Below are positions 26,609-49,668 of a stretch of DNA of 64,000 bases, in pieces. The notes under the pieces were generated by a model. That model worked only from the letters and a program-made list of their open reading frames with translations, searched no databases and was not told where the DNA came from. Made by a program: the position numbers and the translations under genes. Each line of letters opens with the position of its first letter. Positions within the stretch are counted from its first letter, which is position 1. The stretch comes from an uncultured Nitrospira sp. (GTDB lineage: Bacteria > Nitrospirota > Thermodesulfovibrionia > Thermodesulfovibrionales > UBA6898): the NCBI GenBank assembly GCA_963734475.1, contig CAVTHB010000003.1:60390-124389 (forward strand), written 5' to 3'.

Positions 26609-29272
26609 CTAGCCCAGCATTGCATTCAGCGTATCTCTAAGCTCCTCAAGGTTGTAGGGCTTTGTCAGGCGCGCCTTGAAGCCGTATTTATTATAATCCG
26701 ATACAACGGCATCGTCCGAGTAGCCGCTCGATACAATGGCCCTGATGCCGGGGTCGATTGCAAGCAGTCTTTCTATCGTCTCTTTTCCTCCCAGGCCCCC
26801 GCGGATAGTCAAATCCAGGATCACGATATCGAAGGGACTGTCCGACTCACTTGAGGTCTGGTATTTCTCGATAGCTGCTTCTCCATGTTCTGTTAAGTCC
26901 ACATCGTGACCGAGGGCTGTTATGAGTTCTCCTGCGATATTTCGTATCAGTTCCTCGTCATCCATTACAAGGATTTTACCTTTGCGGGCAGGGGCAGTGG
27001 CCACAGAAATTACTGAGGCTGCGGAAGCCTCTCTTTCAGCTTCAAGCGCAGGCAGATAGACAAAAAAAGTGGTGCCTTCGCCCGGTTCAGAAGCCACATC
27101 GATAATGCCGCCATGGTTTCTGATTATGGAATAGGAAGTCGCAAGTCCCAGTCCGCTGCCCTTCTTCCTGGTCGTAAAATAGGGGTCGAAGATCTTATCG
27201 CAGGTACTTGCCCGGCAATACCGATACCGCGTGTCCTGAACAGAAATCTCAACATACTTTCCGTTCTCCAGGAGGTTGGAATGGGTCTTCTTCGGCTCCT
27301 GCAGATTTTTTGCCGTGATCACTATCGTACCACCTGAGGGCATCGCCTGATCAGCATTAAGCACGATGTTCTGGATCACCTGTCCGATCTGTCCCTTCGT
27401 CAGCCTCTACAGCCCAGAGGTCTTCGTCCGGTAAAGATGCGGTATTCAGCCGTGGAACCGCTCAGGGCGAACTTCACGGAATTCTCGATCAGGGTCTGGA
27501 GTCGTATCTTCTTCTTAACCGGTTTGCCGCCTTTTGAGAAGGTCAGAAGCTGTGTGGTAAGGTTTACAGACATATGCAGGGCCTGCTCTGCCTGCTCAAG
27601 CATGGCAAGGGAGCGCTCCTTTCTGTCCAGGGTCAGCTTGGCCAGGGAGATATACCCGAAGACTACCCTGCAGCAGAGTTGTTGAAATCATGCGCAATGC
27701 CGCCTGCCAGGGTCCCGATCGCCTCAAGCTTCTGTGTCTTCAGCCGCTCCTCTTCAAGAAGGTGCTTTTCAGTAATATTATTTACTGTCTCAATAACTGA
27801 GGTAACGGCTCCGGATCTGTCCTTTATCGGAAAGGCCTTTGTCTCAACATACAGGACAGCGTCATGAGCGTCTGCATGTTTGTGGACAGTTGTGCAGGGC
27901 TGCTCCTGTATCGAAGACCTTACGCACAGCACAGTCCTCACCTGTCTCAAAGCACGGCCGCAGGACCTTGTGGGAAATCTCGTAGCAGTGTCTGCCGATG
28001 ACATCATCGCATATCTTGCCTAACTGGCTGCAGTATGCCTTATTGGCAGTCAGTATGCGGAAATCCCTGTCGATCACGATAAACCCCTCATCAACAGTGT
28101 CCAGGACGTTTCTTATAAATTGTTCGCTTTCGCGAAGGTCCTGTTCCACACGTTCCCTTTCAAGTATCTCGTACTTCAGCTCCTCGTTGGTCAGGAACAG
28201 TTGTTCGGTCCGCTCTTTGACCCGCCTTTCAAGATTGTCATGGGCTTCCCGGACCTTTCCGACCATTGAGTTGAATGCTGTAGCAAGCGCCGCTACCTCG
28301 TCGGAACCCTTCACTTCAGCCCTAAGTTCGAGGGAGCCGCTCTCCGTTATACGCTTTGCCGCATCGCTCAATACCATCAGCCTGCCGGTAAGCATCAGCG
28401 AAATCGTCTTTGAGACCCACATGGTAACAGCTATGAACATCAGCCCCGCAACAAAATAGATCCCTACAAGCCACCCTGCCTGTATTTTCCGGTAATCGTC
28501 TATCTCGAACTGAAACGCCATCTTGTCCAGGGGCGGTTGAAGCTTCAGTCGTTTCTTCATCTGAAAGAAACTTGCCTCGTCCCTTTTGTTCTTTTGCAGT
28601 AAAATATTTTGGCTGCTCAGCAGCGACACGCTCCTGTCATTGCTTACATCGAAGGAAGGCAGGGTCTTGTTGAACAGCTCGTCCAGCCTTATCTCCCCAA
28701 CCAGTATGCCCTCAGGTTTGTTTGTCATGACCCAGATGACCGGAAACGCCATCAGGAGGCTTTTTCCATTGCCGTATTTATCGAGTTCTGCGAATCTCTT
28801 TCCTTCCCCGATCGTTCTTTTCAACAGCTCCGGAGAATTGAATGTGCGAGGATTCCGGACATTTGAAGCGATGGGCGTACCCATGAAATCACAGAGGGTC
28901 AGTTTGACTGCGATGTCGTGTTCGAGCTTGTAACTTTTCATGAAAGGGACTATATATGTGTCCCGGCCGGTGGTGTCGACGAGTGCGTTGGTAATGATGA
29001 GGTTTGCAGAAATGTTGGACATGGACTCAGAGATGGAGTTCATCGTTTGCTCGAGCCTCAGCGAAGCCTGGACAGCATCGGATTCGAGCGTCTGCTGGAT
29101 ATTCTGCCTGACGAGGCGCCTCATGAACCCGAAGGACAGCGACTCCGACTATCAGGAGAATAGACAACGTGAGGGCGATCATCGCAAAATTGACACGATG
29201 GTAAATGCTGTTGTTCGTCCGCTCATAATAAGAGAGGAGCTTTGTCCCTGATAACGGAAGGCAGTCGTTCAA
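26609..29272 (-). pseudogene. Hybrid sensor histidine kinase (TM - sensor - HAMP - PAS - HisKA - HATPase - REC) broken by at least 6 single-base frameshifts
   Basis: Fragments lie in different frames: 29027-29272 (TM), 27862-29124 (sensor/HAMP/PAS), 27663-28007 (PAS plus H-box GIAHDFNN), 27400-27603 (DHp) and 26609-27379 (HATPase+REC). My hand translation shows the conserved sequence continuing across each frame switch. Confidence 0.85.
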
Positions 29273-30594: not shown

Positions 30595-31984
30595 TCAGAA
30601 CCCGATGGTCTGCGGCGCCCTGGGGCAGGGGATGACGTCACGGATATTGGTCATGCCGGTAATGTATTGCACCATACGTTCGAAACCCAGCCCGAAGCCC
30701 GCGTGGGGGGCGGAGCCGAACCTCCGGAGATCAAGATACCACTGAAGGTTTTCCAACGGCACATTCGAGTCGCGCATTCTCTCTTCCAGCACCTCCAGCC
30801 TTTCCTCACGCTGGCTTCCGCCGATTATCTCGCCTATTTTAGGGGCGAGCACGTCCATTGCGGCAACGGTTTTTCCGTCCGGGTTAAGTCTCATGTAAAA
30901 GGCCTTTATCTCCTTCGGGTAATCAAAAACAATAACAGGCCCGTTGAAGACCGTGTCAGTGAGATAGCGCTCATGTTCGGATTGCAGGTCCGTGCCCCAT
31001 TCCACAGGAAATTCAAATTGCTCTTTTGCATTTTTTAATTCCTTTACGGCATCGCTATAGGAAATATGCACAAAGGGCGTTTCCGACAGTCTGATCAGAT
31101 CGGCCCTGGATATTTTTTTGTACTGGTTCTCTAAAAAGGCAAGCTCTTTCTCCCCTTTTTCGAGCGCCTGAGCACAGAGATAGCGGAAGAAATCTTCGGC
31201 AAGACGCATGTCGTCACTGAGGTCTGCAAAGGCCATTTCCGGCTCGATCATCCAGAACTCTGAAAGATGACGGGAGGTGTTTGAATTCTCGGCCCTGAAG
31301 GTGGGACCGAAGGTATAGACATTACCCAGGGACATGGCCAGAAACTCGGCCTCAAGCTGGCCGCTCACAGTCAAATATGCCCTTTTGCCGAAAAAGTCCT
31401 GCGTAAAATCTACAGCGCCGGTTTCCCTGCTTTGGCGGATTTCCGATATCGAGTGATGTTACTGAAAAGAGCTCTCCTGCGCCTTCGCAGTCGCTTGAAG
31501 TGATAATAGGTGTATGGACCCAGACGAAGCCGCGGGACTGAAAGAAGTCATGCACGGCAGCGGCGAGGAGATTGCGCAGTCTGAATACAGCTCCGAAGGT
31601 ATTTGTCCGCGGCCTGAGATGTCCGATCTCCCTAAGAAATTCCAGAGTGTGTCCTTTTTTCTGCAGGGGATATTTCTCAGGGTCGGAATCCCCGAAGACC
31701 GTGATTTCAGAAGTTTCAAGTTCCAGCCGCTGGCCCTTTCCGGGTGAGTCCTTCAAAACTCCCTTGGCCATGATGGCTGCCCCGGTATTGCAGCGGACTA
31801 TTTCCCCGAAGGCGGCTGACTCGCCGGGGACTACAAGCTGCAGGGAATCCTGGGAGGACCCGTCATTCAGCACAACAAAGGCAAAGCCTTTTGATTCACG
31901 CCGCGACCTTACCCAGCCGCATACAGTGACAGGGTCACCTGCATTTCCGTTTTGAAGGACCTCTTTTATCAGTGTTCTTTCCAC
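30595..31984 (-). pseudogene. asnS: Asparagine--tRNA ligase interrupted by one frameshift near 31430
   Basis: The N-terminal OB-fold part is 31352-31984 and the class II catalytic core is 30595-31374 ([15 protein letters not shown]...PRAP). Shifting frame near CCGCCAAAGCAGGGAAACC restores ...[28 protein letters not shown]. Confidence 0.9.
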
Positions 31985-32862: not shown

Positions 32863-33744
32863 ATGAAACTTAAACCACTTCAGGATTGGGCTGTAATTCA
32901 GAGAATAGAGCCAAAGGAAATGACTGCGGCCGGGATAATCATACCTGAGATGGCCAAGGACAAGCCCACGGAAGGTATCGTCCTGGCGATCGGACCGGGG
33001 AAGTTCAAGACAGAGAAAGGCGAAGAGAAAAAGAAAGAGAAGGAGAAGAAAAAGAAATTTGTCCCTACAGTATTGAGACCGGGGCAAAAGATCATCTATG
33101 GGGAATATTCCGCCAGAGAGTTCGAGTTCGATGGTGAGACAATCGTCTTAGTCAGGGAAGAGGATGTTCTGGGAACTGTCGAGGAAACCCAAATCGTTGA
33201 AAAACAGCCTTTTGCCGTGGAAGAAAAACGTCAACAGCCGGTAGCTGTAAAAAAGAAAAACGAAGTTATGGCAATAGCTGCCCCTGAGAAGGAGAAAAAG
33301 AGCGTCTCTGCTCCTGCAAAAAAGGGGAGTACACCTGAAAAAATGACCTCAAAGAAGGCGGCCCCGGATGCAAAGGCGGACGTCAAGAAAGAAAAGAAAA
33401 AGGCCGTTGCGAAAAAAACAGATGAAAGCCTTAAGAAGAAAACAGTAAGGACCAGCAAGGCAAAGACGCCGGTCAACAAACCTGCAGCAAAGAAAACAAC
33501 TGGGAAGCCGATCAAGAAGGCAGTCCCGCTTAAAAAAACAAAAGGTCCTGAAAAGAAAACTGCGGTAAAGAAGGCCGTGACAAAAAAGAAGGTCGTGGAA
33601 AAGACAGCCCCCGCAAAAAAGAAGACGGTCCAAAAAAAGCTTGCTGTCAAACCTGTGAAAAAAACTGCGATGAAAAAAACAACGCCGGTAAAAAAGAAGT
33701 CAGCTGCAAAAAAGCCATCGGCAAAAGGCAGGGCGAAAAGATAA
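32863..33744 (+). CDS. GroES-like co-chaperonin domain fused to a roughly 185-aa Lys/Ala/Pro-rich histone-H1-like tail
   Basis: A strong AAGGAGG RBS is present. The N-terminus MKLKPLQDWAVIQRIEPKEMTAAGIIIPE...VLAIGPG...REEDVLGTVE aligns with the GroES pattern, with a lysine-rich insertion in the roof loop. The C-terminal half is KKxxAKK-type low complexity. No groEL follows. Confidence 0.75.
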   Translation: MKLKPLQDWAVIQRIEPKEMTAAGIIIPEMAKDKPTEGIVLAIGPGKFKTEKGEEKKKEKEKKKKFVPTVLRPGQKIIYGEYSAREFEFDGETIVLVREEDVLGTVEETQIVEKQPFAVEEKRQQPVAVKKKNEVMAIAAPEKEKKSVSAPAKKGSTPEKMTSKKAAPDAKADVKKEKKKAVAKKTDESLKKKTVRTSKAKTPVNKPAAKKTTGKPIKKAVPLKKTKGPEKKTAVKKAVTKKKVVEKTAPAKKKTVQKKLAVKPVKKTAMKKTTPVKKKSAAKKPSAKGRAKR

Positions 33745-33778: not shown

Positions 33779-34735
33779 ATGAAGCTCAGAATAGGCCATC
33801 TTTCCACGTTTTATCATACTGCCATGCTTCTGATGGCCGACGAACATCTCCAGTCGGATCTTGGTGCTGATGTTGAATGGACGCTCTTTGGCACGGGCCC
33901 TTCGATTGTAGCTGCATTTGAAAAGGGTGACCTCGATATCGCTTACGTAGGTTTGCCCCCTGCGCTTATAGGCATTGACAGGGGGGTGGACCTGAAATGC
34001 ATTGCAGGCGGACATATTGAAGGCACGGTAATATGCGGGAAAAAGCGTTACAGAGGCTTTCCTGAAATAGAGGACCTCGGGGAGATACTGGCCCAGTTTC
34101 GCGGAGGAAAGATCGGGGTTCCGGGAAAGGGTTCGATCCATGATGTGATCCTTGCGGACTCTCTCCTCAGGCATCATCTCAATAAAGAAATCGAAGTTGT
34201 AAATTTCTCCTGGGCAGACCGGTTGACAGAAGCGGTTATCCATGATGAAGTATCAGCGGCCTTTGGGACGCCGGCGCTGGCTGCTGTTCTGAAACATTAT
34301 GCCGGGGGCAGGGTGCTCTATCCACCGTCGCAGCTCTGGCCCAACAATCCGAGTTATGGCATTCTTGCGGACAAAAAATTCTTGCAGGATTCGGGGGAGA
34401 CCGTGGAGAGGTTTCTTGTTCAGCATGAAAGGGCTGCTGCAGCTCTGAGGGACCATGCGAGCGAGGCAGCAGTGACCATCTCCAGGTTCCTCGGCTTTGT
34501 CGAGGAAGGCTTGGTCCTGGATGCCCTGAGGATATCACCCAGATATTGCGCAAAGTTGACTGACGGGTATATTTCATCTACGATGACCTTTGCGAAAGTC
34601 ATGAAATCCATGGGATACCTCAGGAGAGATATCACAGCTGAAGAGATATTTGAGACTTCCTTTATCGATAAGGTCCATCCGGAAGAGAACCACTATGCTT
34701 TTCCGGAGCATACGGGTGAGGATGCGAACTCATAA
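33779..34735 (+). CDS. NMT1/SsuA-like (type 2 periplasmic-binding fold) substrate-binding domain protein without an obvious signal peptide
   Basis: MKLRIGHLSTFYHTAMLL...DIAYVGLPPALIG resembles NitT/TauT-family binding proteins. The assignment is by pattern only. Confidence 0.5.
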   Translation: MKLRIGHLSTFYHTAMLLMADEHLQSDLGADVEWTLFGTGPSIVAAFEKGDLDIAYVGLPPALIGIDRGVDLKCIAGGHIEGTVICGKKRYRGFPEIEDLGEILAQFRGGKIGVPGKGSIHDVILADSLLRHHLNKEIEVVNFSWADRLTEAVIHDEVSAAFGTPALAAVLKHYAGGRVLYPPSQLWPNNPSYGILADKKFLQDSGETVERFLVQHERAAAALRDHASEAAVTISRFLGFVEEGLVLDALRISPRYCAKLTDGYISSTMTFAKVMKSMGYLRRDITAEEIFETSFIDKVHPEENHYAFPEHTGEDANS

Positions 34736-34813: not shown

Positions 34814-34859
34814 TATTTTTTTAACTAAGTCTTAAAGTTTGGGAAAGAGAGGCCAGAGT

Positions 34860-35435
34860 ATGTCAAAAAAAGAAAGAAATCTGCCGAAGCCGGGGAAGAC
34901 CCCGTTCAGCAGAAAGAGACCTGTAAATGAGGGGCAGGACGATCTGCTGATGGCAGACCAGATGGCTATGGCTTCTGCAGAGGGAAGACTGGATGAGTAC
35001 CTTGAGCAGGAGATTCCGGAAGGCGAGTATGCAAAAAAACTTGCGAGGATGATGATGGGGATGACCGGGATAGTCCCCCCTGAAGAAGACCGTGCTGGAT
35101 CTTCTGAGGCAAGTGGAACAGAGAAGCCGGAGGAAATTAAAGCTGCTCAGACTGTGCCGGAAGATGTGGTAAGTGCTGTGCATGCCGGTGACGTAGAGAA
35201 ACTAAAGGGGCTGCTTGCGCGGGAGAAACAGCGAAGAGATCCTCAACAGGAGGATGAGACATACTCCGGGGAGAAGATCTTTGAAAAGCAGCCACAACCA
35301 GAAACTGTGCTTGAGAAGGCGATGCTCGATGAAGTGCTCAAGATTGCTGCTGATAACAGCCTGAACGTCGACTGGCTGATAGCCCGGGCGCTGAAGTTGT
35401 ATCTGGAGGAGTACCGGAAGACCGGACGGCTATGA
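34860..35435 (+). CDS. Hypothetical acidic protein
   Basis: ORF with an AGAGAGG RBS before the ATG at 34860. The track start is a TTG at 34839. No domain recognised. Confidence 0.45.
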   Translation: MSKKERNLPKPGKTPFSRKRPVNEGQDDLLMADQMAMASAEGRLDEYLEQEIPEGEYAKKLARMMMGMTGIVPPEEDRAGSSEASGTEKPEEIKAAQTVPEDVVSAVHAGDVEKLKGLLAREKQRRDPQQEDETYSGEKIFEKQPQPETVLEKAMLDEVLKIAADNSLNVDWLIARALKLYLEEYRKTGRL

Positions 35436-36665
35436 TTTTTGCTTTCTGCTCAGGGGCCGCCTGACGCCCAGGAATTGCATAACCTGCTGTTTGATCTCAA
35501 GATGATGGAGAGGGATGTTGGGCACGTCCCTGTTGCCGGGGACCGCTGGAATGTGAAGGAACAGCAGCTCTTTTTGCCTGCTTCTCAGCACACCCGCAAG
35601 TCCCTTCCTGTCTGCTGACTTAATGACGTTTCTTATGCCGAAACCTTTTGCCACAAGAGAGAGGTCGACACATGAGGCGGTCAGTGTAGACTGGTCGCCG
35701 GTAGAGCCGTATGCACTGTTGTCAATGGCAATGATCGTCAGGTTGGCGGGTGAAAAATGAGCTGTTGTAGCGAGAACTCCCGGGTTCATCAGAAGGCTTC
35801 CGTCTCCATCGATCACAACCACTTTTTTGTCCGTGGTCAGACTGAGGCCAAGGCCAATGGGCGTGGCCATGCCCATGCTCCCCAGCATATAAAAATTTGA
35901 CGGCTGGTGTTTTATGAAAAAAAGCTCCTTCGAAGGGATGCCGAGGTTGCAGACAACGACTTTATTGTCGAGATAGGGCGCAAGTGTGTGCAGTATCTCA
36001 AACCGTGTGTATTTGGGAGAAGCGCCGGATTGTTTATTTATTGTCATTCCGGCTTGTCCGGAATCCTTCTTTTTCAATGTGTTACAAAAACAGCCGATTC
36101 CGGACAAGCCGGAATGACAACCAAAAGAGGTCTTCTGTTTTATTGAAGGATTGATAAGCGGTTCCCTACCCCCTGTATGCGCCCATATCGCAGGACTGAG
36201 CAGAAAGGCATGCATCCTGTCCTTCGAATAAACATCTCTCAGCTTTTTCCCGATTATTGTAAAATCATCCCTGCTGCTGATTGTGGAATATGCTATCCCG
36301 GCCCCTCCGAGGATAAGCGGAAGTCGTTTGCCCATAGGCAGCTGGGCCTCGATTTTTTCCTTGTATACTCCCCGCTGGCTGACGAATATCGCAAGGGGAA
36401 GTTTATAAAACCCTGTAAGGGAGAGCAGCGCGTTTATCATATTTCCGACACCTGAACTCTGCACGAACATGGCGGCCCTCCGACCTGAAAGGGCGGCCCC
36501 TGCGCTTACACCTACCCCTTCCTCTTCCCTGGTGAGGGGCACGTGGAAAAATGCCGTGGCTACCATTTCAAGGAGATATTTGATCTTTTCGCACGGCAAA
36601 GAGGAGGTGAAATCAACACCAGCCTTTTTGAGTATCCCGATCAGTTCTTCTTCTGGGTATTGCAT
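35430..36665 (-). CDS. comDE: Fused sulfopyruvate decarboxylase (ComD-ComE type; phosphonopyruvate decarboxylase not excluded)
   Basis: The N-terminal half has VPLTREEEGVGVSAGAALSG...RGVYKEKIEAQLPMG (ComD-like). The C-terminal half has NFYMLGSMGMATPIGLGL...VIDGDGSLLMN...NSAYGSTG (ThDP-binding ComE-like). The two halves are joined by a linker of about 55 aa encoded by a palindromic repeat. Confidence 0.8.
   Translation of the reverse strand: MQYPEEELIGILKKAGVDFTSSLPCEKIKYLLEMVATAFFHVPLTREEEGVGVSAGAALSGRRAAMFVQSSGVGNMINALLSLTGFYKLPLAIFVSQRGVYKEKIEAQLPMGKRLPLILGGAGIAYSTISSRDDFTIIGKKLRDVYSKDRMHAFLLSPAIWAHTGGREPLINPSIKQKTSFGCHSGLSGIGCFCNTLKKKDSGQAGMTINKQSGASPKYTRFEILHTLAPYLDNKVVVCNLGIPSKELFFIKHQPSNFYMLGSMGMATPIGLGLSLTTDKKVVVIDGDGSLLMNPGVLATTAHFSPANLTIIAIDNSAYGSTGDQSTLTASCVDLSLVAKGFGIRNVIKSADRKGLAGVLRSRQKELLFLHIPAVPGNRDVPNIPLHHLEIKQQVMQFLGVRRPLSRKQKS
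36043..36118. repeat. REP-like double hairpin (GTCATTCC-stem-loop-GGAATSC type) inside the comDE coding sequence
   Basis: The arms gtcattccggcttgtccggaat and attccggacaagccggaatgac are perfect 22-bp inverted repeats separated by 32 bp. Each arm is itself a hairpin. Confidence 0.85.
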
Positions 36666-37897
36666 AAGATCTCCTCTATCTCGGTCATGGTTATCTTTTT
36701 AGATACAAAACGCGGCTCGACATTATATACTCTTTTCTCCCTTCCCAGCCTCTTTTCTCCGCCGCCCGTGATGTTTAACAGAATGGAATCGACACTACTG
36801 ACAGCCCTGATATTGACCGCTTCCCTCAGCGCGGCAACAGCAACGCCGGCTGCAGGCACGATATCTATGCCTTCTGTTTCCGCGAACAGGTCCATTCCGG
36901 AAAATACGTCTTCGTTTTTTATCCCGTACATCATGCCATTCGTTGCCTTGAGAGCATCATATAACCCGCCGACAAGGGAATATGCGGGATACCGGGTTGA
37001 CAAAACTCTTGTCGTAATTTTGCCGATCAGTTCAGGTCTTAGATCTTCAGGGGAAAGTTCGCGGCAGTCTTTCCACCAGGCCTTTACCATCGGCCCAAAG
37101 GGAAAATTCTGCGCCAGGTGCAGCCTGGGATGCCGCGACCCGAACCTGCCGTCACGAATAAACCGTTCCGACATCTCCCATACCCCGATGGCGCCTGTGC
37201 CGCTTCCAACCGCCTGGAAATAGTGGTCCGGGAGCCTGCCCATTTCAGAGACCGCTTTGAGCAATACCGCACCGAGGCCGTCTCTTTTTGCGATGTTCTT
37301 TACCCCTCCTTCAAAAGGGAAGCCATAGACGGCAGAGATCCTTTTTGCCACATCGATCGAATCCGCATAATCACCGTCGCCTACAGCAAGGGTAGGAACT
37401 CCGGAAGAGCTCTCCAGATACCACATCTCGGTAAGGCACATAGTCGGCACAACGATTATGACAGGAAAACCGGCTACTACGGACAGATGGGCAAAGGCCC
37501 TTGCTGTGTTTCCGGCAGAAGCTACGATCAGTCCTTTCACATCGTTTTCCATCGCATTCTGCATAACAACCGCGGCCTCGAATTCCTTGAATGTGCATGT
37601 TTCAAGCAGCGCCCCCATCTCAGGCCAGTAGCCGTTGAAGACTATATAGAGGTTTTCAAGGCCGAGATATGAGGAAAGACCCTTTGACTTGTATACGACA
37701 GGGCCTGCCTGGGCAAAGCCGTGGGTGTGGACCGGGAGCCAGTTGAAGCCCCATACCCCGTCGCCTCTGTCGTCACTGAACTCCCTCTCTTTGTAATCTG
37801 TTATGAGCAGGGCGTCTTTGCAGTGTTCGCAGAACGCGCAGAAGACGTTATTCAGTTCAGCGCCGCACTTTCTGCATCGTATGGAGAAATGGCTCAT
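36641..37897 (-). CDS. Threonine-synthase-family PLP enzyme, probably cysteate synthase
   Basis: It has an N-terminal 4-Cys zinc-ribbon-like CRKCG...CAFCEHC, a PLP-lysine context TCTFKEFEA, and a ThrC-like fold. It overlaps comDE downstream and the Fe-S gene upstream. Confidence 0.65.
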   Translation of the reverse strand: MSHFSIRCRKCGAELNNVFCAFCEHCKDALLITDYKEREFSDDRGDGVWGFNWLPVHTHGFAQAGPVVYKSKGLSSYLGLENLYIVFNGYWPEMGALLETCTFKEFEAAVVMQNAMENDVKGLIVASAGNTARAFAHLSVVAGFPVIIVVPTMCLTEMWYLESSSGVPTLAVGDGDYADSIDVAKRISAVYGFPFEGGVKNIAKRDGLGAVLLKAVSEMGRLPDHYFQAVGSGTGAIGVWEMSERFIRDGRFGSRHPRLHLAQNFPFGPMVKAWWKDCRELSPEDLRPELIGKITTRVLSTRYPAYSLVGGLYDALKATNGMMYGIKNEDVFSGMDLFAETEGIDIVPAAGVAVAALREAVNIRAVSSVDSILLNITGGGEKRLGREKRVYNVEPRFVSKKITMTEIEEILCNTQKKN

Positions 37898-39111
37898 GGG
37901 CTACCTCTTTCGATCAGGCCCGACAACAGCTCCATTATATCAACTATTTTGACCTGTCTTTCGTGTCCGATCAGCGCTTCGTTAACTTTAGCGTAGCATG
38001 CCGGACAGCTCAGGACAAGTTTATCAGCGCCTTTGGTAACAGCCTCGTCTATAGTCAATCTTCCCATAGCAATCGCATTTTCATGAAAGACCTTTCTCGC
38101 GGCCCCTCCGGAGCCGCAGCATCTGGAGTTTACACCATGTCTGTCGAACTCTAGCAACTCGACCCCGGGTATGCTGCCAAGAATCCTCCTGGGTTCCTCA
38201 ATGATGCCTACGCCCCTGCTCAGATAACAGGGGTCATGATAGATTATCTTCTCCTTCAATCCCTCGGTGAAGACTAGCCTTTTTTCCTGGATCGCATCTG
38301 AAACTATCTGCGAAATGTGTCTGACCTTGAAAGGAAGCTCCGAACCGTAGAAGGCAGGCCAGTCTCTGACCATGATATTAACGCAGCAGGGACATGAACA
38401 GATGAGGGTCTTCACTCCCCGTGCCATATATGCATCCACAAGCCGTTTTGTCAGGTCTTCAAGTATATCGAACTGTCCGGTAATAAAGAGAGGGAACCCG
38501 CAGCAGACCTCTTCTTCGGGCGGCAGCATCGTGAAGGGTGCTCCGATAGCATCGAGTACAAGCACATCCCCTCTAACCATGGGTTGTGCTTCATATGCTC
38601 CTGTACATCCGGCATAATAGCCCAGCTCAGCATTTTCCGATATAGTGACATTCTCCGGGAACCACGGCTTGAAGCGGTCTGCAGCAGGCTTTTTATAGGG
38701 ATTGCCTGTCTCCCTGACAGCACCTGGAATGTCTGCCTGCGGCCCTATGGGGCCTAGCCCCCTGCGTACCATCTCGGCCCTCAGCATCGGCCATAGCCGC
38801 TGCGTAAAAATGCCGACAGAGCAGTTCTGTCCGCAGGCCCCGCAGGTGGTGCATTCATAAACCGCTTTTGTGAAATCCTCGAGCAGTCTTCTGTCAATCT
38901 GTCCGGGGCCGAAAAGTCTGGCCTTCAGTCCGTCTGTCGCCCGGATGAATTCCCTGAAAAGGCGTATCTTTTCAGGAGGCGAAACCGCTTGATTCGGCGC
39001 TACCTCCTGGACCGGGCAGTGCTTCAGACACTCGCCGCAGAGGGTACAGGCGTCGAGTTCCATTAGCTGCATAGGGGTCAACCCCCGTGTAAAGGAATCC
39101 TTATTTTTCAT
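37894..39111 (-). CDS. HdrD/DsrK/GlpC-family Fe-S oxidoreductase (2x[4Fe-4S] + 2 CCG domains), copy 1
   Basis: The ferredoxin motifs are CTLCGECLKHCP and CTTCGACGQNC. The CCG motifs are EVCCGFP and SRCCGSGG. Confidence 0.85.
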   Translation of the reverse strand: MKNKDSFTRGLTPMQLMELDACTLCGECLKHCPVQEVAPNQAVSPPEKIRLFREFIRATDGLKARLFGPGQIDRRLLEDFTKAVYECTTCGACGQNCSVGIFTQRLWPMLRAEMVRRGLGPIGPQADIPGAVRETGNPYKKPAADRFKPWFPENVTISENAELGYYAGCTGAYEAQPMVRGDVLVLDAIGAPFTMLPPEEEVCCGFPLFITGQFDILEDLTKRLVDAYMARGVKTLICSCPCCVNIMVRDWPAFYGSELPFKVRHISQIVSDAIQEKRLVFTEGLKEKIIYHDPCYLSRGVGIIEEPRRILGSIPGVELLEFDRHGVNSRCCGSGGAARKVFHENAIAMGRLTIDEAVTKGADKLVLSCPACYAKVNEALIGHERQVKIVDIMELLSGLIERGSP

Positions 39112-39838
39112 TCATCAGTGACCTGACCGCCTTCTCCCTCTGGCGCGCATCGAGCAGCGAGACCGGTGCCGCTGCTATGTGCGTGGGAAGATACGCAAAA
39201 ATTATGAGAAAAAGGACAAAGTGCATTATAAAAAGAAGGCTGTGAGGCGCCTCGGCCGGTCTGAAAGTGACCATGCCCAGAGCGAACCATTTGATTCCCG
39301 CGAGATCGGGATGGAACCATACTTTCATCAGCAGGCCACTGATGCCGGACAGGAGCAGGAGGGCAAGGAGGAAAAAATTTGAGCTTGATATATAACTTTT
39401 TTTCTCGATGACCAGCTTTGCTATGAAGATGTATATGAGGGACAGCGGCAGGAGATATTGCGCGATAATGACAGGTGTCTGAAGCGCAAAAATGCAGGAA
39501 GGTACAGGTTCCAGAAAAAAGCGCAGATGCCGGACCATTACGAGAACAAGGCACATATGGAAAAGCCATTCCCCGAACCAGAGGAAGGCGTTCGAGAAGA
39601 AAAGCCTCCTGAGTAACAGGATATCGACCGCGGTTGATGCAGCAACGGAGAGGGTGATGCCGGACCGCGCGGCAGCAGCAGGGAGGACCTCATCTTTTCT
39701 GAGCAAAAGGGATATTTTCTGGATATAGGAGACGATAAAGAGGACCATAACCAGATAGTAACCCCATGTCAGAACAATGCCCATATCGGCGTACCCTTTC
39801 GGAGGTCTCATATGGCTAGAGCCTGGAAAAGGCATCAA
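39101..39838 (-). CDS. NarI/DsrM/HdrE-like integral membrane (putative di-heme b) subunit, copy 1
   Basis: Five to six TM helices carry conserved His residues (FHMCLV..RHLRFF, IMHFV..YLPTH). It overlaps both flanking Fe-S genes. Confidence 0.7.
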   Translation of the reverse strand: MMPFPGSSHMRPPKGYADMGIVLTWGYYLVMVLFIVSYIQKISLLLRKDEVLPAAAARSGITLSVAASTAVDILLLRRLFFSNAFLWFGEWLFHMCLVLVMVRHLRFFLEPVPSCIFALQTPVIIAQYLLPLSLIYIFIAKLVIEKKSYISSSNFFLLALLLLSGISGLLMKVWFHPDLAGIKWFALGMVTFRPAEAPHSLLFIMHFVLFLIIFAYLPTHIAAAPVSLLDARQREKAVRSLMNEK

Positions 39839-41069
39839 TTATGGCCTCTGCTGACACATCCGGGCATACAGACCCTACGAGAACCTCATTACTATGATAA
39901 ACCTTTATCGGTGAGGAAATCTCGTCGACAGCGTGCTGCAGCCCTATAGCGCAAGTCTGACACGGGGTAACGACAGCTTCGGAAGCCGTGGCCTCCGCTT
40001 CCCTTATCCGGCCTGCTGACATCTTCAACTGGACCTCGGGATAGGCGAGTTTCAGTCCGCCCCCCATGCCGCAGCAGGAAGAAAACGACCTGTGCCTCGG
40101 CATCTCTACCAGCCTTATCCCGGGTATTGCCCTGAGTACCTGTCGCGGTTCATCGTATATATTATTATGGCGGCCCAGATGGCACGGGTCATGGTAGGTG
40201 ATTGTCAGCGGCACCCCCCGCCTCAGCAGCAGCCGTCCATCGTGAATCAGGATGTTCAGGAACTGTGTGAGGTGTAGTACTTTAGGCGCATCCGCCCAAA
40301 TACCAGCATAGTCAGAGTGGAGCCCCTTATAGCAGCCGGCACACGAAACTACAAGGGTCTTTATTCCCATCTGTCTTATCATTTCAGCCCTTAGCCATGC
40401 CTCCCGCAGGAAATCACCGTCCCCCATGCGTCTTAATTTGCTTGCACAGCAGGGTTCGTCATTGCCGAGGATCGAGAAGTCTATCCCTGCCTCCTGGAGC
40501 AGACGGGCAGACTGTACGGCAACCGCCTGCTGTGACGGGTCATAGCTGGCGGTACACCCCGCGAAGTAGAGGACCGGGGCGGGATGCTCTTTCCAGAGGC
40601 GGAGAGGCTTCAGGAGAAATCCTGATTCCCATGCCTTATCGGCCCAGAGTCCGCGCTCCTGCTGAGGTCTGCTGTAAGAGTTGTTGAACTCCTTGATGGC
40701 AGAGAGCTGTTTAATCTGGCCTGGGGGCTGAGGGAACCCCGCCTTTACGAGGGAAGCCCTTGACTGTTCCCAGAGTTCAGGCGTATTGATGCGCACCGGA
40801 CAGACAACATGACATTGTCCGCAGGCAGAACATTCGTACAGGCTGTCAATGAATTCCTGCTGTTCCGTGTTGTCGAGACTGTCCCGCACAATCTTCCGGA
40901 GGAACTTTATCTTAGACCGTGCCGTAACCAATTCTCTGCTGTCCCGGGCATAGACCGGACACCACTGCCGGCATTCACCGCAGCGGGTGCAGGCATCCAG
41001 CTCAACGAGCTGTCTCCATGTCAGTCCTTCAGCGATCCGGTCGCCCTGTGTTTTGAGATGTCCGGCCAA
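39816..41069 (-). CDS. HdrD/DsrK/GlpC-family Fe-S oxidoreductase, copy 2
   Basis: The ferredoxin motifs are CTRCGECRQWCP and CSACGQCHVVCP. The CCG motifs are EPCCASK and SSCCGMGGG. Confidence 0.85.
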   Translation of the reverse strand: MAGHLKTQGDRIAEGLTWRQLVELDACTRCGECRQWCPVYARDSRELVTARSKIKFLRKIVRDSLDNTEQQEFIDSLYECSACGQCHVVCPVRINTPELWEQSRASLVKAGFPQPPGQIKQLSAIKEFNNSYSRPQQERGLWADKAWESGFLLKPLRLWKEHPAPVLYFAGCTASYDPSQQAVAVQSARLLQEAGIDFSILGNDEPCCASKLRRMGDGDFLREAWLRAEMIRQMGIKTLVVSCAGCYKGLHSDYAGIWADAPKVLHLTQFLNILIHDGRLLLRRGVPLTITYHDPCHLGRHNNIYDEPRQVLRAIPGIRLVEMPRHRSFSSCCGMGGGLKLAYPEVQLKMSAGRIREAEATASEAVVTPCQTCAIGLQHAVDEISSPIKVYHSNEVLVGSVCPDVSAEAIIDAFSRL

Positions 41070-41860
41070 TAGATATCCTTTCTTTCAAACTCCGCAGAGG
41101 CGTTTAATGCTATGACCATGGGTGCGGAGATGCTGTGTATAAGTTTGCTGTGGGGCAGGTAGACAAGCAGGCCAATTCCGCTGAAAGCATGTAAGCACCA
41201 GCAGGCGGTCAGCCAGGGCTGGAGCTGAACTACAGTATAGGAACCCGGTGGTATGAAAAGAGAGCCCATGAAGGAATAGCGAGAGATTTCAGGCGGTACA
41301 AGCGACAGTCGCAACCCCTCCAGTACGAACCCTGAAAGCGTTAGCCAGAGAAGGAACAGGAGGAGCCAGACATCTGCCTGTTCAGTGCCCTGCTGCGAAG
41401 GCCTCAGGAGAAAACGTCTGACCGAGGCCGCGGCAAGTCCGGTAAGAAGAAAGAGGCCGAAGGTATCACCCCAGACCTTCACCAATATATGACCTTTGGC
41501 TGAAGAGAAAAAATGTCTCGCCGCGCTGTATACATCCGCCATCCCGAGGGCAGAGGCGATGCAGGTAGTCAGGGAAAGCAGGGCGAGAGAAAAAAATCCC
41601 CAGAAGATGAGCATATGAATACCCCAGCGGGCCGGGGAGAGTATGAAGATCTGACGCTGGAAGAGTATTTCAGTAATACATATTTTCAGTGCAGCCCCCG
41701 GGTTCTTCCTGGAGACGGCGCCTGTTTTTGTTCCGCGTGACCACCTCTTCCAGATACGGAAAAAAGAATAATCCATATACCCGTGGGCAAAGAGAGCGGC
41801 TGTCCAGAAAATGGCCCACGGTTTAGCATAATGCATCGGCTGGGGGTCGAACATATTCAA
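41021..41860 (-). CDS. NarI/DsrM/HdrE-like integral membrane subunit, copy 2
   Basis: Multi-TM protein with His motifs (WGIHMLIFWGF, LHAF...YLPHSKLIH). Confidence 0.7.
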   Translation of the reverse strand: MNMFDPQPMHYAKPWAIFWTAALFAHGYMDYSFFRIWKRWSRGTKTGAVSRKNPGAALKICITEILFQRQIFILSPARWGIHMLIFWGFFSLALLSLTTCIASALGMADVYSAARHFFSSAKGHILVKVWGDTFGLFLLTGLAAASVRRFLLRPSQQGTEQADVWLLLFLLWLTLSGFVLEGLRLSLVPPEISRYSFMGSLFIPPGSYTVVQLQPWLTACWCLHAFSGIGLLVYLPHSKLIHSISAPMVIALNASAEFERKDIYWPDISKHRATGSLKD

Positions 41861-41878
41861 AACCTGCAGCTCATGATT

Positions 41879-42202
41879 TCAATCGCCCGTGTCTCTTTCA
41901 AAGACTATACTGACGTCCCTGGGCACAGCAAGCCCTGCCTCAACTTCCAGCGCCTTGAGAATGCCTGACGGGACAGGACAGGCAACATGCTTCAGACAGG
42001 TTGCCCCCTTTGTGTATACCGGGTTGTCAAGGACCCTCTTGAAGGCGTCCATAAAGTTTAATTCAGGCAACTCCGTTCCCAGCTTCTCCGCCATTTTGCA
42101 TTCGGAGGTTATAGTCAGTGTGAAAGTCTTCTTGTCCTTCTTTTTCACCACTACCGTTACCAGCATTCCGCAGGCACCGGGCTGTATCTTTATTTTCGCC
42201 AT
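41879..42202 (-). CDS. Small 4-Cys hypothetical protein
   Basis: 107-aa ORF with Cys at positions 11, 35, 69 and 75. It sits between the RACo gene and the first membrane subunit. No family recognised. Confidence 0.5.
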   Translation of the reverse strand: MAKIKIQPGACGMLVTVVVKKKDKKTFTLTITSECKMAEKLGTELPELNFMDAFKRVLDNPVYTKGATCLKHVACPVPSGILKALEVEAGLAVPRDVSIVFERDTGD

Positions 42203-42234
42203 AGTGTCCTCGATTCACCATTCACCATTCACTA

Positions 42235-44226
42235 CTATCCCTTAATACTTGGCGCAACAGGCTCCTTCTGTTCTTCCAGCATAGCCTTAAGGTTAGGGAA
42301 TTTGTCTTTCATGTGCGGGATATGCATCGCCTGCATGAACTCCTTTTCGAATGCCGGCTCTGTCGCGATCTCTACAAATTCGACCCACCTGGCGCGTTCA
42401 TCAGCTTCTTTTCTCTTGTTCCTGTTGAGCAGCGCCATCCTCGATCCGTCGCCTGCTGCATTGCCGACGACGACGACCTTTTCGATAGGCACATCAGGGA
42501 ACATGCCTAGCGTCAGTGACGCCTCCCGGTCGATATGGCTGCCGAAGGCACCGGCAAGTTCAACGCGGTCCAGTTTTGTGACGCCCATTTTCTGCATCAT
42601 CAGCTTTGCGCCGGCATAAAGTGCGCCTTTTGCAAGCTGGAGGGCCCTGACATCACCCTGTGTTACAGTGATATCCTGGCCTATGGAAGTCTCCTCTGCC
42701 CATGCAAGCACATACTCCGGCTTGCCCTCAGAACTTTTCCTGACTCTGCTGGTGTCGGCATCAGGAACAAACTTGCCCGTTTTGTCGATTATGCCTGCCT
42801 TGAACATCTCGGCTATTACATCTATGATCGCCGAGCCGCATATGCCCTTAGCATTGATCTTGCCTTCGATATGGGTGTGCCAGTCAGCCTTGCCGATCAC
42901 TTTGTACTGTGCTTCCTTTGTTGCCGGATCGATCTTCACCTTCTCGATTGCGCCGGGGGCCGCTCTCATCCCGAACTTGATCTGGGCGCCTTCGAACGCG
43001 GGTCCTGTGGCACATGAGGTCGAACAGACCCTGTCCTTATTACCCAGAAGAAGTTCGCCGTTCGTGCCGATGTCTATAATGAGCACCATATCGTCCTGGA
43101 AATACTGCTCTTGAGCGATGAGCACACCGACATTGTCAGCACCGACGAAACCGGCCTCGATCGGCAGCACATGTATGAATGAGCCTGGGTTGATCCTCAG
43201 TCCGAGATCGCGGGCCTTGATATCAAGAGAACGCTGCACCGCGGGTATAAAGGGTGAACGGCCGATATAGACGGGATTGAGACCAAGGAAGATATGGTGC
43301 ATCGCCGTGTTGAAGACGATCGTAAGGTCGTCTATAGCATGACCGGGATGAGGGCCGTTTTTCCTTATTTCCGAGACAACTTTTTCGATAATCTCATTAA
43401 GGCCTGCAATGATCGCATCCTGCATGGTCTTCAGTCCTTCAGGATTTGTCATGGCGTAGGTTATTCGGGACATTACGTCCTCACCGTATGGCACCTGAGG
43501 GTTCATCATCGACTCCGTATTGATTACTTTTCCGGTGCTGAGGTCGCAGAGATAACCAACACACGTTGTTGTTCCGATATCAACGGCAAGACCGTAGCAC
43601 GCGTCGACATGACCAGGCTCAACTTTAATTATCTCCTTGCCCTGCCAGACAGTTACAGTGATGGTCCAATCTCCGTCCCGCAGGGCGTCCTGAAGCTTGA
43701 GCAGGACCTGAAAATCGAAGGTCAGATCCTTGATGCCATAAATGTCCGACATCGCGGTTATGACCCGCTCATAGTCGCCTGTACTCATATCGTGCAGAGT
43801 GGGGGGGGTGAATGTAAGCGTGTATTTTTTCACCGCAGGGTCAAGCGCGATCACAAGCTCTTTAGCGGCCTTTCGCACTACCTGTTTGCCGGCCCTGGAC
43901 CTCTCAGGCACAAACACCTTCAGGTCCCCGTGGATCTCGCAGGAACAGGCGAGTCTCACCCCGGGGCCGTCTTCCGGTTTCAGATGCTTCAACTCATCCG
44001 GCGTAGGTTGGGCCGGCGTAATATGCGCCATGCCGGATTCGAGATTGTCCTTCTCAGAATAGCCCTCCTCGATCCTGACCTTGCATTTGCCGCAGACCTT
44101 CTTGTCCCCGCAAAGTGCTTCGAGGTCAACGCCGAGAAGCTGCGCTGCCTTGAGAATTGTTGTGCCTTCCTCTATTTCTCCGCGCCTGCCTGCAGGCTGG
44201 AAAATCACCTTGAATTTACGACTCAT
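42235..44226 (-). CDS. RACo-type reductive activator of corrinoid proteins ([2Fe-2S] ferredoxin + ASKHA ATPase)
   Basis: The N-terminus has a plant-type ferredoxin motif CGDKKVCGKCKV...RLACSC. The ASKHA phosphate motifs are VDIGTTT and IDIGTNGE. Confidence 0.88.
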   Translation of the reverse strand: MSRKFKVIFQPAGRRGEIEEGTTILKAAQLLGVDLEALCGDKKVCGKCKVRIEEGYSEKDNLESGMAHITPAQPTPDELKHLKPEDGPGVRLACSCEIHGDLKVFVPERSRAGKQVVRKAAKELVIALDPAVKKYTLTFTPPTLHDMSTGDYERVITAMSDIYGIKDLTFDFQVLLKLQDALRDGDWTITVTVWQGKEIIKVEPGHVDACYGLAVDIGTTTCVGYLCDLSTGKVINTESMMNPQVPYGEDVMSRITYAMTNPEGLKTMQDAIIAGLNEIIEKVVSEIRKNGPHPGHAIDDLTIVFNTAMHHIFLGLNPVYIGRSPFIPAVQRSLDIKARDLGLRINPGSFIHVLPIEAGFVGADNVGVLIAQEQYFQDDMVLIIDIGTNGELLLGNKDRVCSTSCATGPAFEGAQIKFGMRAAPGAIEKVKIDPATKEAQYKVIGKADWHTHIEGKINAKGICGSAIIDVIAEMFKAGIIDKTGKFVPDADTSRVRKSSEGKPEYVLAWAEETSIGQDITVTQGDVRALQLAKGALYAGAKLMMQKMGVTKLDRVELAGAFGSHIDREASLTLGMFPDVPIEKVVVVGNAAGDGSRMALLNRNKRKEADERARWVEFVEIATEPAFEKEFMQAMHIPHMKDKFPNLKAMLEEQKEPVAPSIKG

Positions 44227-44295
44227 TTATATATCCTCCCTGAAATCTTTGTAGTTACTGACCTGGCCTTTATAGAGTTAAAAACATTCAAAGCC

Positions 44296-44360
44296 GTCAT
44301 GCCCGGGCTTGATCCCGGCATCCAGTGATTCCGGATTCCCCCGCTCAGGTGGGGAATGAC
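44296..44360. repeat. REP-like double hairpin of the same family, intergenic copy
   Basis: The arms are gtcatgcccgggcttgatcccggcatcc ... gattcccccgctcaggtggggaatgac. Confidence 0.75.
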
Positions 44361-44478
44361 AAGAATGGGACTTTTATAATGACTTTTTACATATATATTT
44401 ACTCACCGTTGTCCCGCACAAAGTGCGCAACGCAAATAATATCTGAACTACCTACGGCATATCATCCAAAACTTCGGA

Positions 44479-45132
44479 CTACAGGCTTATTTTATTGCCT
44501 CCTCCGTTTTTTCTTGAATAGGGGCAGACTGTCACGCAGAAGCCGCAGTTAGGCTTGCCTTCAAGACTCTGCCGTTCCTGTTTGAGCGCTGAGCATTTGT
44601 CATAGAAAACCATCTCCTTGCGAGGCTCGTTTACAGACCAGTGGTCACCCCTGATCGCACCTGAAGGACAATGCGTTACACAGAGATCGCAGTCCCCGCA
44701 CTCAGACTCCCGCATCGGCTCATCAGGATCCAGCGGTGCATTGGTCAGCACGGTTGCCCAGGAGAGTTTTGAGCCGTATTGCCGGTTGATCACAAGCCCG
44801 TTCTTCCCGACCCACCCGAGACCCGAACAGGTGGCTGCTGTCTTGTGGCAGAAGAGTTTGTAGAGCTTTGTTATGAGCTTGTCTTTCCTCCTGTCTGAAT
44901 CAGGGGGTATGACGAGATTCAGGTAGCCTCTTGATCTCAGCCAATCCTCAGCCAGTCCCTGAAGTTTTAAGAGCATTTCAACGGTTTCACGGTTCAGACT
45001 CCTGTTGACTGCTATTGCCACACCGCGGTTCAGGTGAAGTATCTCGCTCGACAGAGCTTTGGTAATGTCGCCTATGCCGACGAGGGTAGCACCCTCCTTT
45101 TTCAGATACTGCTTGAGCATGTCTGAATTCAC
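44479..45132 (-). CDS. QueG/RdhA-related 2x[4Fe-4S] protein (short form)
   Basis: The Fe-S motifs are CGDCDLCVTHCP and CGFCVTVCP. The preceding region resembles the epoxyqueuosine-reductase core (GLGWVGKNGLVI). Confidence 0.6.
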   Translation of the reverse strand: MNSDMLKQYLKKEGATLVGIGDITKALSSEILHLNRGVAIAVNRSLNRETVEMLLKLQGLAEDWLRSRGYLNLVIPPDSDRRKDKLITKLYKLFCHKTAATCSGLGWVGKNGLVINRQYGSKLSWATVLTNAPLDPDEPMRESECGDCDLCVTHCPSGAIRGDHWSVNEPRKEMVFYDKCSALKQERQSLEGKPNCGFCVTVCPYSRKNGGGNKISL

Positions 45133-45135
45133 GGT

Positions 45136-45822
45136 TTATTGCTTCGCCGCCTTCTCGTCTCTGAGCTTCTTGAGGAACGCGACCATCTTGATTGCCTCCT
45201 TGAGAGCGTTGCTGGCATCCTCTGCATAACCGTCAGCGCCCCACTTGTCGGCAAGATCCTTGGAAGTCGGAGCTCCACCGATCATGACCATGCAATTGGG
45301 GTTCTTTTCCTTGATCTTTTCGATCACCTTCGGCATACCGACCATGGAAGTCGTCATCATTGCAGAGAGGCAGACAAGGTCTGAGTCAGTCTTGAGCTGT
45401 TCTTCAACGAACTTGTCCAGAGGGACATCCCTGCCAAGGTCATAGACATTGAAGCCTGCAACGTCAAACATCATCTTGACGAGGTTTTTGCCGATATCAT
45501 GCACATCCCCTTCAACAGTCCCGATGACAACAGAACCCTTTACGCCAAGGTCCATCTGCTTGCAATGCGGCTTAAGGATCTCAAGACCTGCGTAGAGGGC
45601 GTCGGCGCACATGAGGATCTCGGGTACGAAATATTCCTGCGCCTCAAAAAGCCGTCCGACTTCCTCCATGCCTGACACCAGACCGTCAAAGATGGCCTCG
45701 TTGGCGTCCAGACCAGCCTCAAGCGCCTCGTTAGCGCCTTCCTTGCACGCGTCCTCATCATACTGTATGACGCCGTTTCTCAATTTCTCGAAGATTTCTT
45801 TCTTTTTAGTTTCGTCTGCCAT
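45136..45822 (-). CDS. Corrinoid (cobalamin-binding) methyl-carrier protein, MtaC/MtbC-like
   Basis: It has a B12-binding cap helix bundle and a Rossmann domain with the DxHxxG motif (GDVHDIGKN). Confidence 0.9.
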   Translation of the reverse strand: MADETKKKEIFEKLRNGVIQYDEDACKEGANEALEAGLDANEAIFDGLVSGMEEVGRLFEAQEYFVPEILMCADALYAGLEILKPHCKQMDLGVKGSVVIGTVEGDVHDIGKNLVKMMFDVAGFNVYDLGRDVPLDKFVEEQLKTDSDLVCLSAMMTTSMVGMPKVIEKIKEKNPNCMVMIGGAPTSKDLADKWGADGYAEDASNALKEAIKMVAFLKKLRDEKAAKQ

Positions 45823-46850: not shown

Positions 46851-46875
46851 AAATTACTGTCTCCTTTCAAATCTC

Positions 46876-47829: not shown

Positions 47830-47927
47830 TACATCTCCTTTTTACGGGGATTATGATAATATAAAATATGCGTTTAACTCAGGGCAGCTTACCTTCGACT
47901 GAAGGTCGCTGCCTTTCTTTTTTTCAC

Positions 47928-48014: not shown

Positions 48015-48019
48015 TTATT

Positions 48020-49656: not shown

Positions 49657-49668
49657 TTTTTCTCCTCC

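Follow-up and report, generated by a model that had tools for sequence, protein, structure and literature searches.

A stretch of 64,000 nt from an uncultured Nitrospira sp. (GCA_963734475.1, contig CAVTHB010000003.1, positions 60,390 to 124,389 of the forward strand), here called the window and used for all coordinates below unless a locus is named, encodes a cysteate synthase (CS) directly coupled to a fused sulfopyruvate decarboxylase (ComDE). CS (36641-37897, minus strand, 418 AA) is a pyridoxal phosphate (PLP) enzyme predicted to form L-cysteate from O-phosphoserine and sulfite; ComDE (35430-36665, minus strand, 411 AA) is predicted to use thiamine diphosphate (ThDP). Both identities, assigned by homology, are held with high confidence, and the biosynthetic direction, from phosphoserine and sulfite to sulfoacetaldehyde, with nearly as much. 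The best explanation as a whole, in which these enzymes are combined with an archaeal origin of the gene pair and a fate of the product as a thiol like coenzyme M (CoM), is considered reasonably likely. Nitrospirota which carry the operon described below probably make and use CoM or a close relative of it.

A first-pass annotation, made from the sequence alone, had described CS as a cysteate-synthase-like paralogue of threonine synthase (ThrC) and had named the scores on the two sets of profile models as a means of telling the families apart. This comparison was decisive. Residues 4-396 of CS aligned with positions 1-395 of the 398 positions of TIGR03844, the equivalog model for EC 2.5.1.76, and reached 459.8 bits at a cut-off of 324.9, whereas seven ThrC models gave 29-77 bits against cut-offs of 167-421 (NF006050, the best of them, 77.2 versus 303 bits; TIGR00260, 35.9 versus 167.1 bits). 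In a sequence search of the PDB, the solved cysteate synthase 9k3c, which is CapA2 of Alistipes finegoldii with PLP, was found with 303.7 bits and ThrC structures with 38-42 bits. The structure of CS was predicted with AlphaFold2 (AF2) from an alignment of 20 sequences out of the fetched loci (predicted local distance difference test, pLDDT, 88.3; predicted template modeling score, pTM, 0.90). The model matched 9k3c with template modeling (TM) scores of 0.90/0.88 and an E-value of 1e-43; for ThrC structures the TM scores were 0.60-0.73, the top match having an E-value of 6e-19 and a TM score of 0.66.

The PLP lysine K104 (within TFKE) and the residues E196, G197, G198, N201 and R205 are invariant in both alignments of the CS family; the same holds for D206 in one of the two alignments, and in the other its conservation is at least 90%. 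The family-specific loop EGGVKNIAKRDG, of the type EGGxKN[IV]A[KR]RDG, is conserved across the family and common to 9k3c; at this site, three ThrC structures read N-S-V-N-P-x-R-x-E-G in the printed alignments. An N-terminal motif of four cysteines had been noted as an extra feature of this protein. Such a motif is present (C8, C11, C20, C23 and C26), but it is a trait of the family, in which C8 never varies and conservation reaches at least 90% at C11 and C23. The alignments of archaeal-type ThrC models with CS likewise begin at residue 5-6, and the Bacteroidota enzyme 9k3c has lost the motif. By profile, sequence and predicted fold, the gene at 36641-37897 encodes a genuine cysteate synthase, its activity being predicted.

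The assignment of the two halves of the 411-AA protein to ComD and ComE, with a ThDP motif, was borne out. The ComD half (residues 5-161) reached 174.5 bits on TIGR03845 (cut-off 147.95), the ComE half (residues 221-398) passed TIGR03846 marginally (222.8 versus 221.5 bits), and the motif GDGS-X25-DN lies at residues 287-316. Among the columns conserved to at least 90% in 54 homologues, ComDE deviates from the consensus at two only, and it is 37-47% identical to archaeal ComDE proteins which follow a CS. Judged by its sequence, the gene at 35430-36665 is a fused sulfopyruvate decarboxylase, the substrate preference being predicted. Read otherwise, the pair would consist of a divergent ThrC paralogue and the phosphonopyruvate decarboxylase of a phosphonate pathway. 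CS does have the ThrC fold, the closest solved relatives of ComDE are annotated as putative phosphonopyruvate decarboxylase subunits (9iz3), and the phosphonopyruvate decarboxylase hidden Markov model TIGR03297 still gives 190.4 bits on ComDE. However, this value is far under the cut-off of 312.5, as are the scores of the ThrC models under theirs, while the CS, ComD and ComE models pass; the TM scores of CS to ThrC structures likewise fall short of the 0.90 to cysteate synthase. The first-pass annotation had tied a phosphonate pathway to a phosphoenolpyruvate (PEP) mutase gene. Domains of PEP mutase, aminotransferase, MMP16 or DUF39 were found neither in the scanned open reading frames (ORFs) of the window nor in the pre-annotated flanks of four relatives (loci L001-L004), where PEP mutase is missing up to 10 kb from the pair. 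A ThrC paralogue with a phosphonopyruvate decarboxylase is therefore very improbable.

Both ORFs are present exactly as first described, with an overlap of 25 nt (36641-36665), and the identical overlap occurs in the relatives L001-L003. The ATG of ComDE is preceded at 6-7 nt by the ribosome-binding site GAGGAG, and the start of CS and the stop of the upstream HdrD-like gene overlap as ATGA. CS and ComDE are translationally coupled via the ATGA and the 25-nt overlap, with a ribosome-binding site for each. That the host is a bacterium, as had been assumed, is supported by dnaK-dnaJ-grpE, an OmpA-family gene and a sigma-54 activator within the window, and by the nearest CS homologues (70-89% identity), which come from metagenome-assembled genomes labeled Nitrospirae, Nitrospirota, Thermodesulfovibrionales or Candidatus Sulfobium. 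The label ‘cysteate synthase’ has already been given to these Nitrospirota homologues by the NCBI and JGI pipelines. In the literature, no paper was found which ties cysteate synthase or ComDE, or their operon, to Nitrospirota; papers on Lake Towuti and one on the deep subsurface mention CoM or cysteate synthase merely in passing. The enzyme names are hence known through annotation pipelines, and the pair and its operon in Nitrospirota are apparently undescribed.

The two proteins would act in the archaeal ‘type 2’ route. CS would convert O-phospho-L-serine and sulfite to L-cysteate and phosphate, a housekeeping aspartate-type aminotransferase encoded elsewhere would bridge cysteate and 3-sulfopyruvate, as in Methanosarcina, and ComDE would cleave 3-sulfopyruvate to sulfoacetaldehyde and CO2. 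Profile scores, fold and coupling support the earlier claim that the window encodes both committed enzymes of the phosphoserine/sulfite route. A generic aminotransferase had been expected to complete it, with which the lack of any aminotransferase gene in the cluster agrees.

For the distribution of the pair, 80 loci were obtained from a scan of one genome per species and compared with the proteins of the window by tblastn. Of these, 26 are of the Nitrospirota type, and adjacency was counted in the 25 with enough flanking sequence. In 24 of these, ComDE comes next after CS, and in 21 of 24 loci CS is preceded by genes for an HdrD-like protein and its membrane partner. The full order of the operon, with the pair at its 3' end, is seen in about 19 loci: UroD_b, CMD, MtrH-like, UroD_a, corrinoid protein, Fe-S protein, RACo, DUF6951, membrane subunit, HdrD-like, CS, ComDE. 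Adjacency of CS and ComDE is also usual in archaea (Methanosarcinales, Methanoperedens, Methanocellales, Methanomicrobiales, Hydrothermarchaeota and Promethearchaeota), but without the operon partners of the Nitrospirota. In Spirochaetota, Moduliflexota, Cyanobacteriota, Bacteroidota, WOR-3 and Aminicenantes, CS has no adjoining ComDE, and the pair is therefore specific to Nitrospirota among the bacteria sampled. In two Nitrospirota loci (L014, 10001-13362; L019, 4532-8803), CS-ComDE and a convergent SsuA-like gene stand among housekeeping genes (lepA, signal peptidase and riboflavin synthesis; an amino-acid permease). The linkage to the Hdr and methyltransferase genes is thus strong rather than obligate, and the biosynthetic module appears able to stand alone.

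Two further observations concern single loci. L003 and L004 have an identical CS protein and identical downstream genes, and differ upstream of the membrane/HdrD pair, where one has the methyltransferase genes and the other genes for a ketoacyl synthase, an AMP-ligase, a radical SAM protein and an acyl carrier protein; a rearrangement or a chimeric assembly would account for this. In the Promethearchaeota locus L079 (9297-13611), a PAPS/APS reductase gene, whose product would supply sulfite, overlaps the start of CS, and CS-ComDE are followed by a gene for a 373-AA protein which has no NCBIfam match and is shared with a second Promethearchaeota locus, L062.

A tree of 83 CS sequences was computed, with branch support given as Shimodaira-Hasegawa-like approximate likelihood ratio test (SH-aLRT) values. 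The Nitrospirota enzymes form one clade (100), sister to Hydrothermarchaeota (98), and both sit within the part which holds the ComDE-linked archaeal enzymes. The remaining bacterial enzymes form a separate clade (100) with the solved CapA2 inside; CapA2 is 63% identical to an Odoribacter protein, which places it on the Bacteroidota branch. The CS of Methanosarcina is on the same branch as that of the window, so that characterized enzymes bracket the Nitrospirota clade. In the ComDE tree, Nitrospirota are again monophyletic, and a branch with a support of 83 separates them and Hydrothermarchaeota from the other sequences. Since the two trees agree, the pair should have moved as a unit, and its entry into Nitrospirota from archaea, with the nearest kin in Hydrothermarchaeota, is the best explanation of the sequence relationships. 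Hydrothermarchaeota have been reported to be without methyl-CoM reductase (MCR) but to have mtrH, hdr and methyltransferase genes (PMC6775978).

A candidate third partner is encoded at 33779-34735 (plus strand, convergent with ComDE). This SsuA/TauA-like protein of the NMT1_2 family has no signal peptide, and the structures closest to its AF2 model (pLDDT 88.6) are those of TauA and SsuA, which bind taurine and alkanesulfonates (TM scores 0.71-0.77); enzymes with the same fold, Thi5 and DszB, rank lower. Numerous His, Cys and Asp residues are invariant. Homology searches from the window protein returned close Nitrospirota relatives only. In both Hydrothermarchaeota loci (L029 and L031), an NMT1/SsuA-like gene of the same operon overlaps the end of ComDE. 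In nine Nitrospirota loci, ComDE is closely followed by a homologue which is 40-47% identical to the Hydrothermarchaeota gene and, wherever the orientation was examined, convergent with ComDE. Because of the missing signal peptide, the modeled TauA/SsuA fold and the presence in both lineages, the product is taken as a cytoplasmic protein with a predicted sulfonate-binding fold, co-inherited with CS-ComDE. One locus, L013, lacks ComDE after CS and instead has a complete sulfonate importer of the SsuABC type between the HdrD-like gene and CS (7319-9899), comprising an exported SsuA (193.8 bits, cut-off 163.5), a permease and an ATPase. This exchange, though a single case, suggests that the operon requires a small aliphatic sulfonate, which is either made or taken up. 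A second, weaker Ssu-like set occurs 4 kb further on in L013.

As another rival, the pair could be catabolic, in which case external cysteate or sulfolactate would be converted to sulfopyruvate and by ComDE to sulfoacetaldehyde, the sulfite being freed for respiration; the CS homologue would then be a cysteate-cleaving PLP enzyme, and the Hdr-like module would pass on electrons. ComDE acts degradatively in the sulfolactate metabolism of Roseovarius, sulfite and sulfate reducers are among the relatives of the host lineage, and SsuA-like proteins are encoded close by. The SsuA-like protein, however, has neither a signal peptide nor a permease or ATPase partner, and genes of the Xsc, IslAB, SarD or CuyA types were not seen in the window or the annotated loci. 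Moreover, the CS clade is bracketed by biosynthetic enzymes, and the elimination of phosphate renders the CS reaction effectively one-way. A catabolic role is thus considered unlikely.

The fate of sulfoacetaldehyde was judged from the genes upstream of CS, all on the minus strand. HdrD1 (37894-39111) is an HdrD/DsrK-like Fe-S protein with two CCG domains and Fer4_8 in Pfam; its top NCBIfam matches, TfrB, LdhH and DsrK, are each under the cut-off. Conserved beside it is Mem1 (39101-39838), a DsrM/HdrE-like membrane subunit (NF038037 cytob_DsrM, 68.7 bits, under the cut-off). Domain matches identify a second membrane and HdrD-like pair at 39816-41860 (Mem2, 41021-41860; HdrD2, 39816-41069); this tandem is found in the window only and in none of the other loci compared. 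The next genes encode a small Cys-containing protein of family DUF6951, conserved in the cluster (41879-42202; PF22263, 104.5 bits), and, by profile matches, a corrinoid reductive activase of the RACo/AcsV type (42235-44226). Between 44479 and 49656, family matches indicate an Fe-S protein, a corrinoid protein, an MtaA-like protein (UroD_a), an MtrH-like protein, a CMD/AhpD-like protein and an MtaA/CmuA-like protein (UroD_b). Compared with MtaA of M. mazei (4ay7), UroD_a scored 170 bits and UroD_b 105.8 bits, and the zinc ligands HxC...C are kept in both. The MtaA-like and HdrD-like proteins of the operon are all under the cut-offs of the methanogen equivalogs. In the closest relative, L001 (CS 89% identical), folD (7053-7997), encoding methylene-tetrahydrofolate dehydrogenase/cyclohydrolase, occupies the position of the second Hdr-like pair of the window, with DUF6951 on one side and the membrane/HdrD pair on the other; it ties the operon there to tetrahydrofolate C1 metabolism.

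These partners are of types which use CoM in methanogens (MtaA, HdrD with two CCG domains, MtrH) and were therefore counted in favor of a CoM-like product. In this scheme, an enzyme distinct from MMP16 would turn sulfoacetaldehyde into CoM or a CoM-like thiol. The two MtaA-like zinc methyltransferases, acting with the MtrH-like enzyme, the corrinoid protein and RACo, would use the thiol as substrate or carrier, and the disulfide of the thiol would be reduced by the HdrD-like CCG protein with its membrane partner, as an HdrDE/DsrMK-like module. As an end product, CoM or a CoM-like thiol is suggested by the operon context, a judgement on which we are evenly poised.

Several observations weigh against it. 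MMP16 is the main CoM synthase of M. acetivorans (PMC11844431) and adjoins CS in 15 loci of methanogens or anaerobic methanotrophic archaea (ANME). A tblastn search with a Methanosarcina MMP16 (611 bits to TIGR03287) gave no match in the Nitrospirota or Hydrothermarchaeota loci, and neither MMP16 nor the alternative CoM synthase COG1900a/DUF39 was found in the window or up to 10 kb from the pair in 25 Nitrospirota loci. Neither MCR, as the consumer of methyl-CoM, nor a supply of coenzyme B was seen in the window. Methyltransferases of the UroD family and the MtrH type are also used by bacteria for demethylations which do not involve CoM (PMC10418091). In L014 and L019, Hdr and methyltransferase genes are not nearby. 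When three metatranscriptome runs from a wetland were compared with 35300-50100, nothing but spurious matches of about 30 nt resulted, most of them on an arm of the repeat described below. Finally, ComE passes its model by 1.3 bits only.

Some of these points favor instead the main rival, in which sulfoacetaldehyde would be reduced to isethionate, transaminated to taurine or oxidized to sulfoacetate. Such a non-thiol sulfonate would be a compatible solute, a sulfite sink or a building block of lipids or the cell wall, and the Hdr and methyltransferase genes would be unrelated or co-regulated only. The missing CoM synthase and the solitary pairs of L014 and L019 fit this proposal, as do the Hydrothermarchaeota, which carry only CS-ComDE and the SsuA-like gene, and the use of other bacterial cysteate synthases, such as CapA2, for sulfonolipids. 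However, genes for sulfoacetaldehyde reductase, taurine aminotransferase or an acyltransferase adjoin the pair in no annotated locus, and the ATGA overlap with the HdrD-like gene together with the same order in 21 of 24 loci is hard to explain without a shared function. The sulfonate importer inside the operon of L013, where ComDE is missing, also speaks against it. Overall, a non-thiol product is regarded as improbable.

The CoM-like thiol can be narrowed to a tentative, bolder proposal which we think possible but doubtful, namely that anaerobic Nitrospirota of the Thermodesulfovibrionia type, like the Hydrothermarchaeota beside them in the gene trees, make genuine CoM through the archaeal route from phosphoserine and sulfite, its last step being catalyzed by a CoM synthase that is not related to MMP16. 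CoM would then be the methyl carrier of an MCR-free corrinoid system, and the reduction of its disulfide by a membrane-bound HdrDE-like module would link methyl metabolism to the quinone pool. A candidate for this synthase is the SsuA-fold protein, in which Cys and His residues are invariant and which may act on its own or together with the DUF6951 protein or the HdrD-like module.

Among known systems, the archaeal ‘type 2’ CoM genes of Methanosarcinales and Methanomicrobiales (cs MA3297, comDE MA3298 and MMP16 MA3299; Graham et al. 2009; PMC11844431) are alike in having both families in the same order and ComD fused to ComE, with identities of 43-49% for CS and 37-47% for ComDE. In contrast, the present pair belongs to a bacterium which is not known to produce methane, its locus has no MMP16, and the pair shares an operon with a corrinoid methyltransferase system and an HdrDE/DsrMK-like module, being accompanied by the cytoplasmic SsuA-like protein instead. 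The CS-ComDE-SsuA-like operon of Hydrothermarchaeota is sister in both trees and shares the third partner (45-47% identity); it differs in being archaeal, in its co-directional SsuA-like gene overlapping ComDE and in having no adjoining Hdr or methyltransferase genes.

Xanthobacter autotrophicus makes CoM from phosphoenolpyruvate with XcbB1-E1 for its alkene/epoxide metabolism (PMC9457059). This route is likewise bacterial, uses sulfite and leads to a two-carbon sulfonate thiol, but its enzymes are unrelated (a ComA-type start and the aspartase-fold XcbC1) and neither cysteate nor sulfopyruvate is an intermediate. The Type 1 mlp clusters of anaerobic bacteria (Kountz and Balskus, PMC10418091) combine UroD-family methyltransferases like MtaA/MtbA with a corrinoid protein and an activase (RACE), and methyl-sulfur compounds have been proposed as substrates. 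They differ in having no MtrH-like gene, Hdr-like module or CS/ComDE, and the paper mentions neither Nitrospirota nor genes for CoM supply. CapA/CapA2 of the sulfonolipid (capnine) pathway of Bacteroidota shares with the window CS the family, the fold (TM score 0.90), 39-42% identity, the PLP lysine and the EGGxKN motif. It differs in its separate tree branch and in lacking a ComDE neighbor and the N-terminal Cys motif, and the cysteate which it forms undergoes acylation in place of transamination and decarboxylation.

To our knowledge, CoM is regarded as a cofactor of archaea which metabolize methane or alkanes, and its sole known bacterial niche, alkene oxidation, uses a different route. If the explanation favored here is true, CoM-type chemistry extends to a widespread clade of anaerobic, sulfur-cycling, non-methanogenic Nitrospirota, an undiscovered final enzyme of CoM synthesis is indicated, and CoM-pathway genes would be unreliable markers of methanogens in metagenomes. 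The minimal reading alone, restricted to the two enzymes, would mean an unannotated use of intracellular sulfite in these organisms.

The fusion of ComD and ComE, pointed out in the first-pass annotation, is real, but it is the normal state and nothing special, as all 54 archaeal and Nitrospirota homologues are fused (370-394 AA, save one extraction of 411 AA from L012). What distinguishes the window protein is its linker of 63 AA, compared with 36-54 AA in the homologues. A perfect 25-nt inverted repeat (36041-36120; arms 36041-36065 and 36096-36120), which resembles repetitive extragenic palindromic (REP) sequences or miniature inverted-repeat transposable elements (MITEs), is inserted there in frame and adds about 22-27 AA, the source of the extra length of ComDE. 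Each arm forms a small GC hairpin with Ts behind it, whichever strand is read, and is thus terminator-like. The arm occurs in multiple copies in a wetland metagenome, where the depth spikes, and was also found in an abundant RNA contig. The insertion was considered as a cause of the fusion and rejected. Because all 54 homologues are fused without the repeat, the fusion is ancestral and the REP-like insertion recent and probably tolerated. A related element, TTGTCATTCC...GGAATC, is located in an intergenic gap at about 44296-44360.

Further features of the window lie outside the operon. A gene at 34839-35435 (plus strand), which converges on ComDE and shares 6 nt with its end, encodes an acidic protein of 198 AA without a family match, homologues of which are found downstream of ComDE in about 12 loci. 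A scan of the window with Rfam gave no match. The 1459-AA protein at 11969-16348 has PPDK_N and PEP-utilizer mobile domains confined to its last 450 residues, the first 1000 residues being without a Pfam match. At 32863-33744, a GroES-like domain (residues 1-108) is followed by a tail of about 185 AA, and an adjoining groEL is absent. The 181-AA ORF at 54414-54959 contains a nitrite/sulfite reductase ferredoxin-like half domain and only the start of a 4Fe-4S domain; it codes for a small sulfite-reductase-like protein or for a truncated version of such a protein. Two overlapping ORFs (31352-31984 and 30595-31374) together make up a class II aminoacyl-tRNA synthetase of the Asp/Asn/Lys type, which has been broken by an assembly frameshift error or is a pseudogene. 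Similarly, a hybrid sensor kinase lies in pieces at 26609-29124, which is due to assembly frameshift errors or marks a pseudogene.

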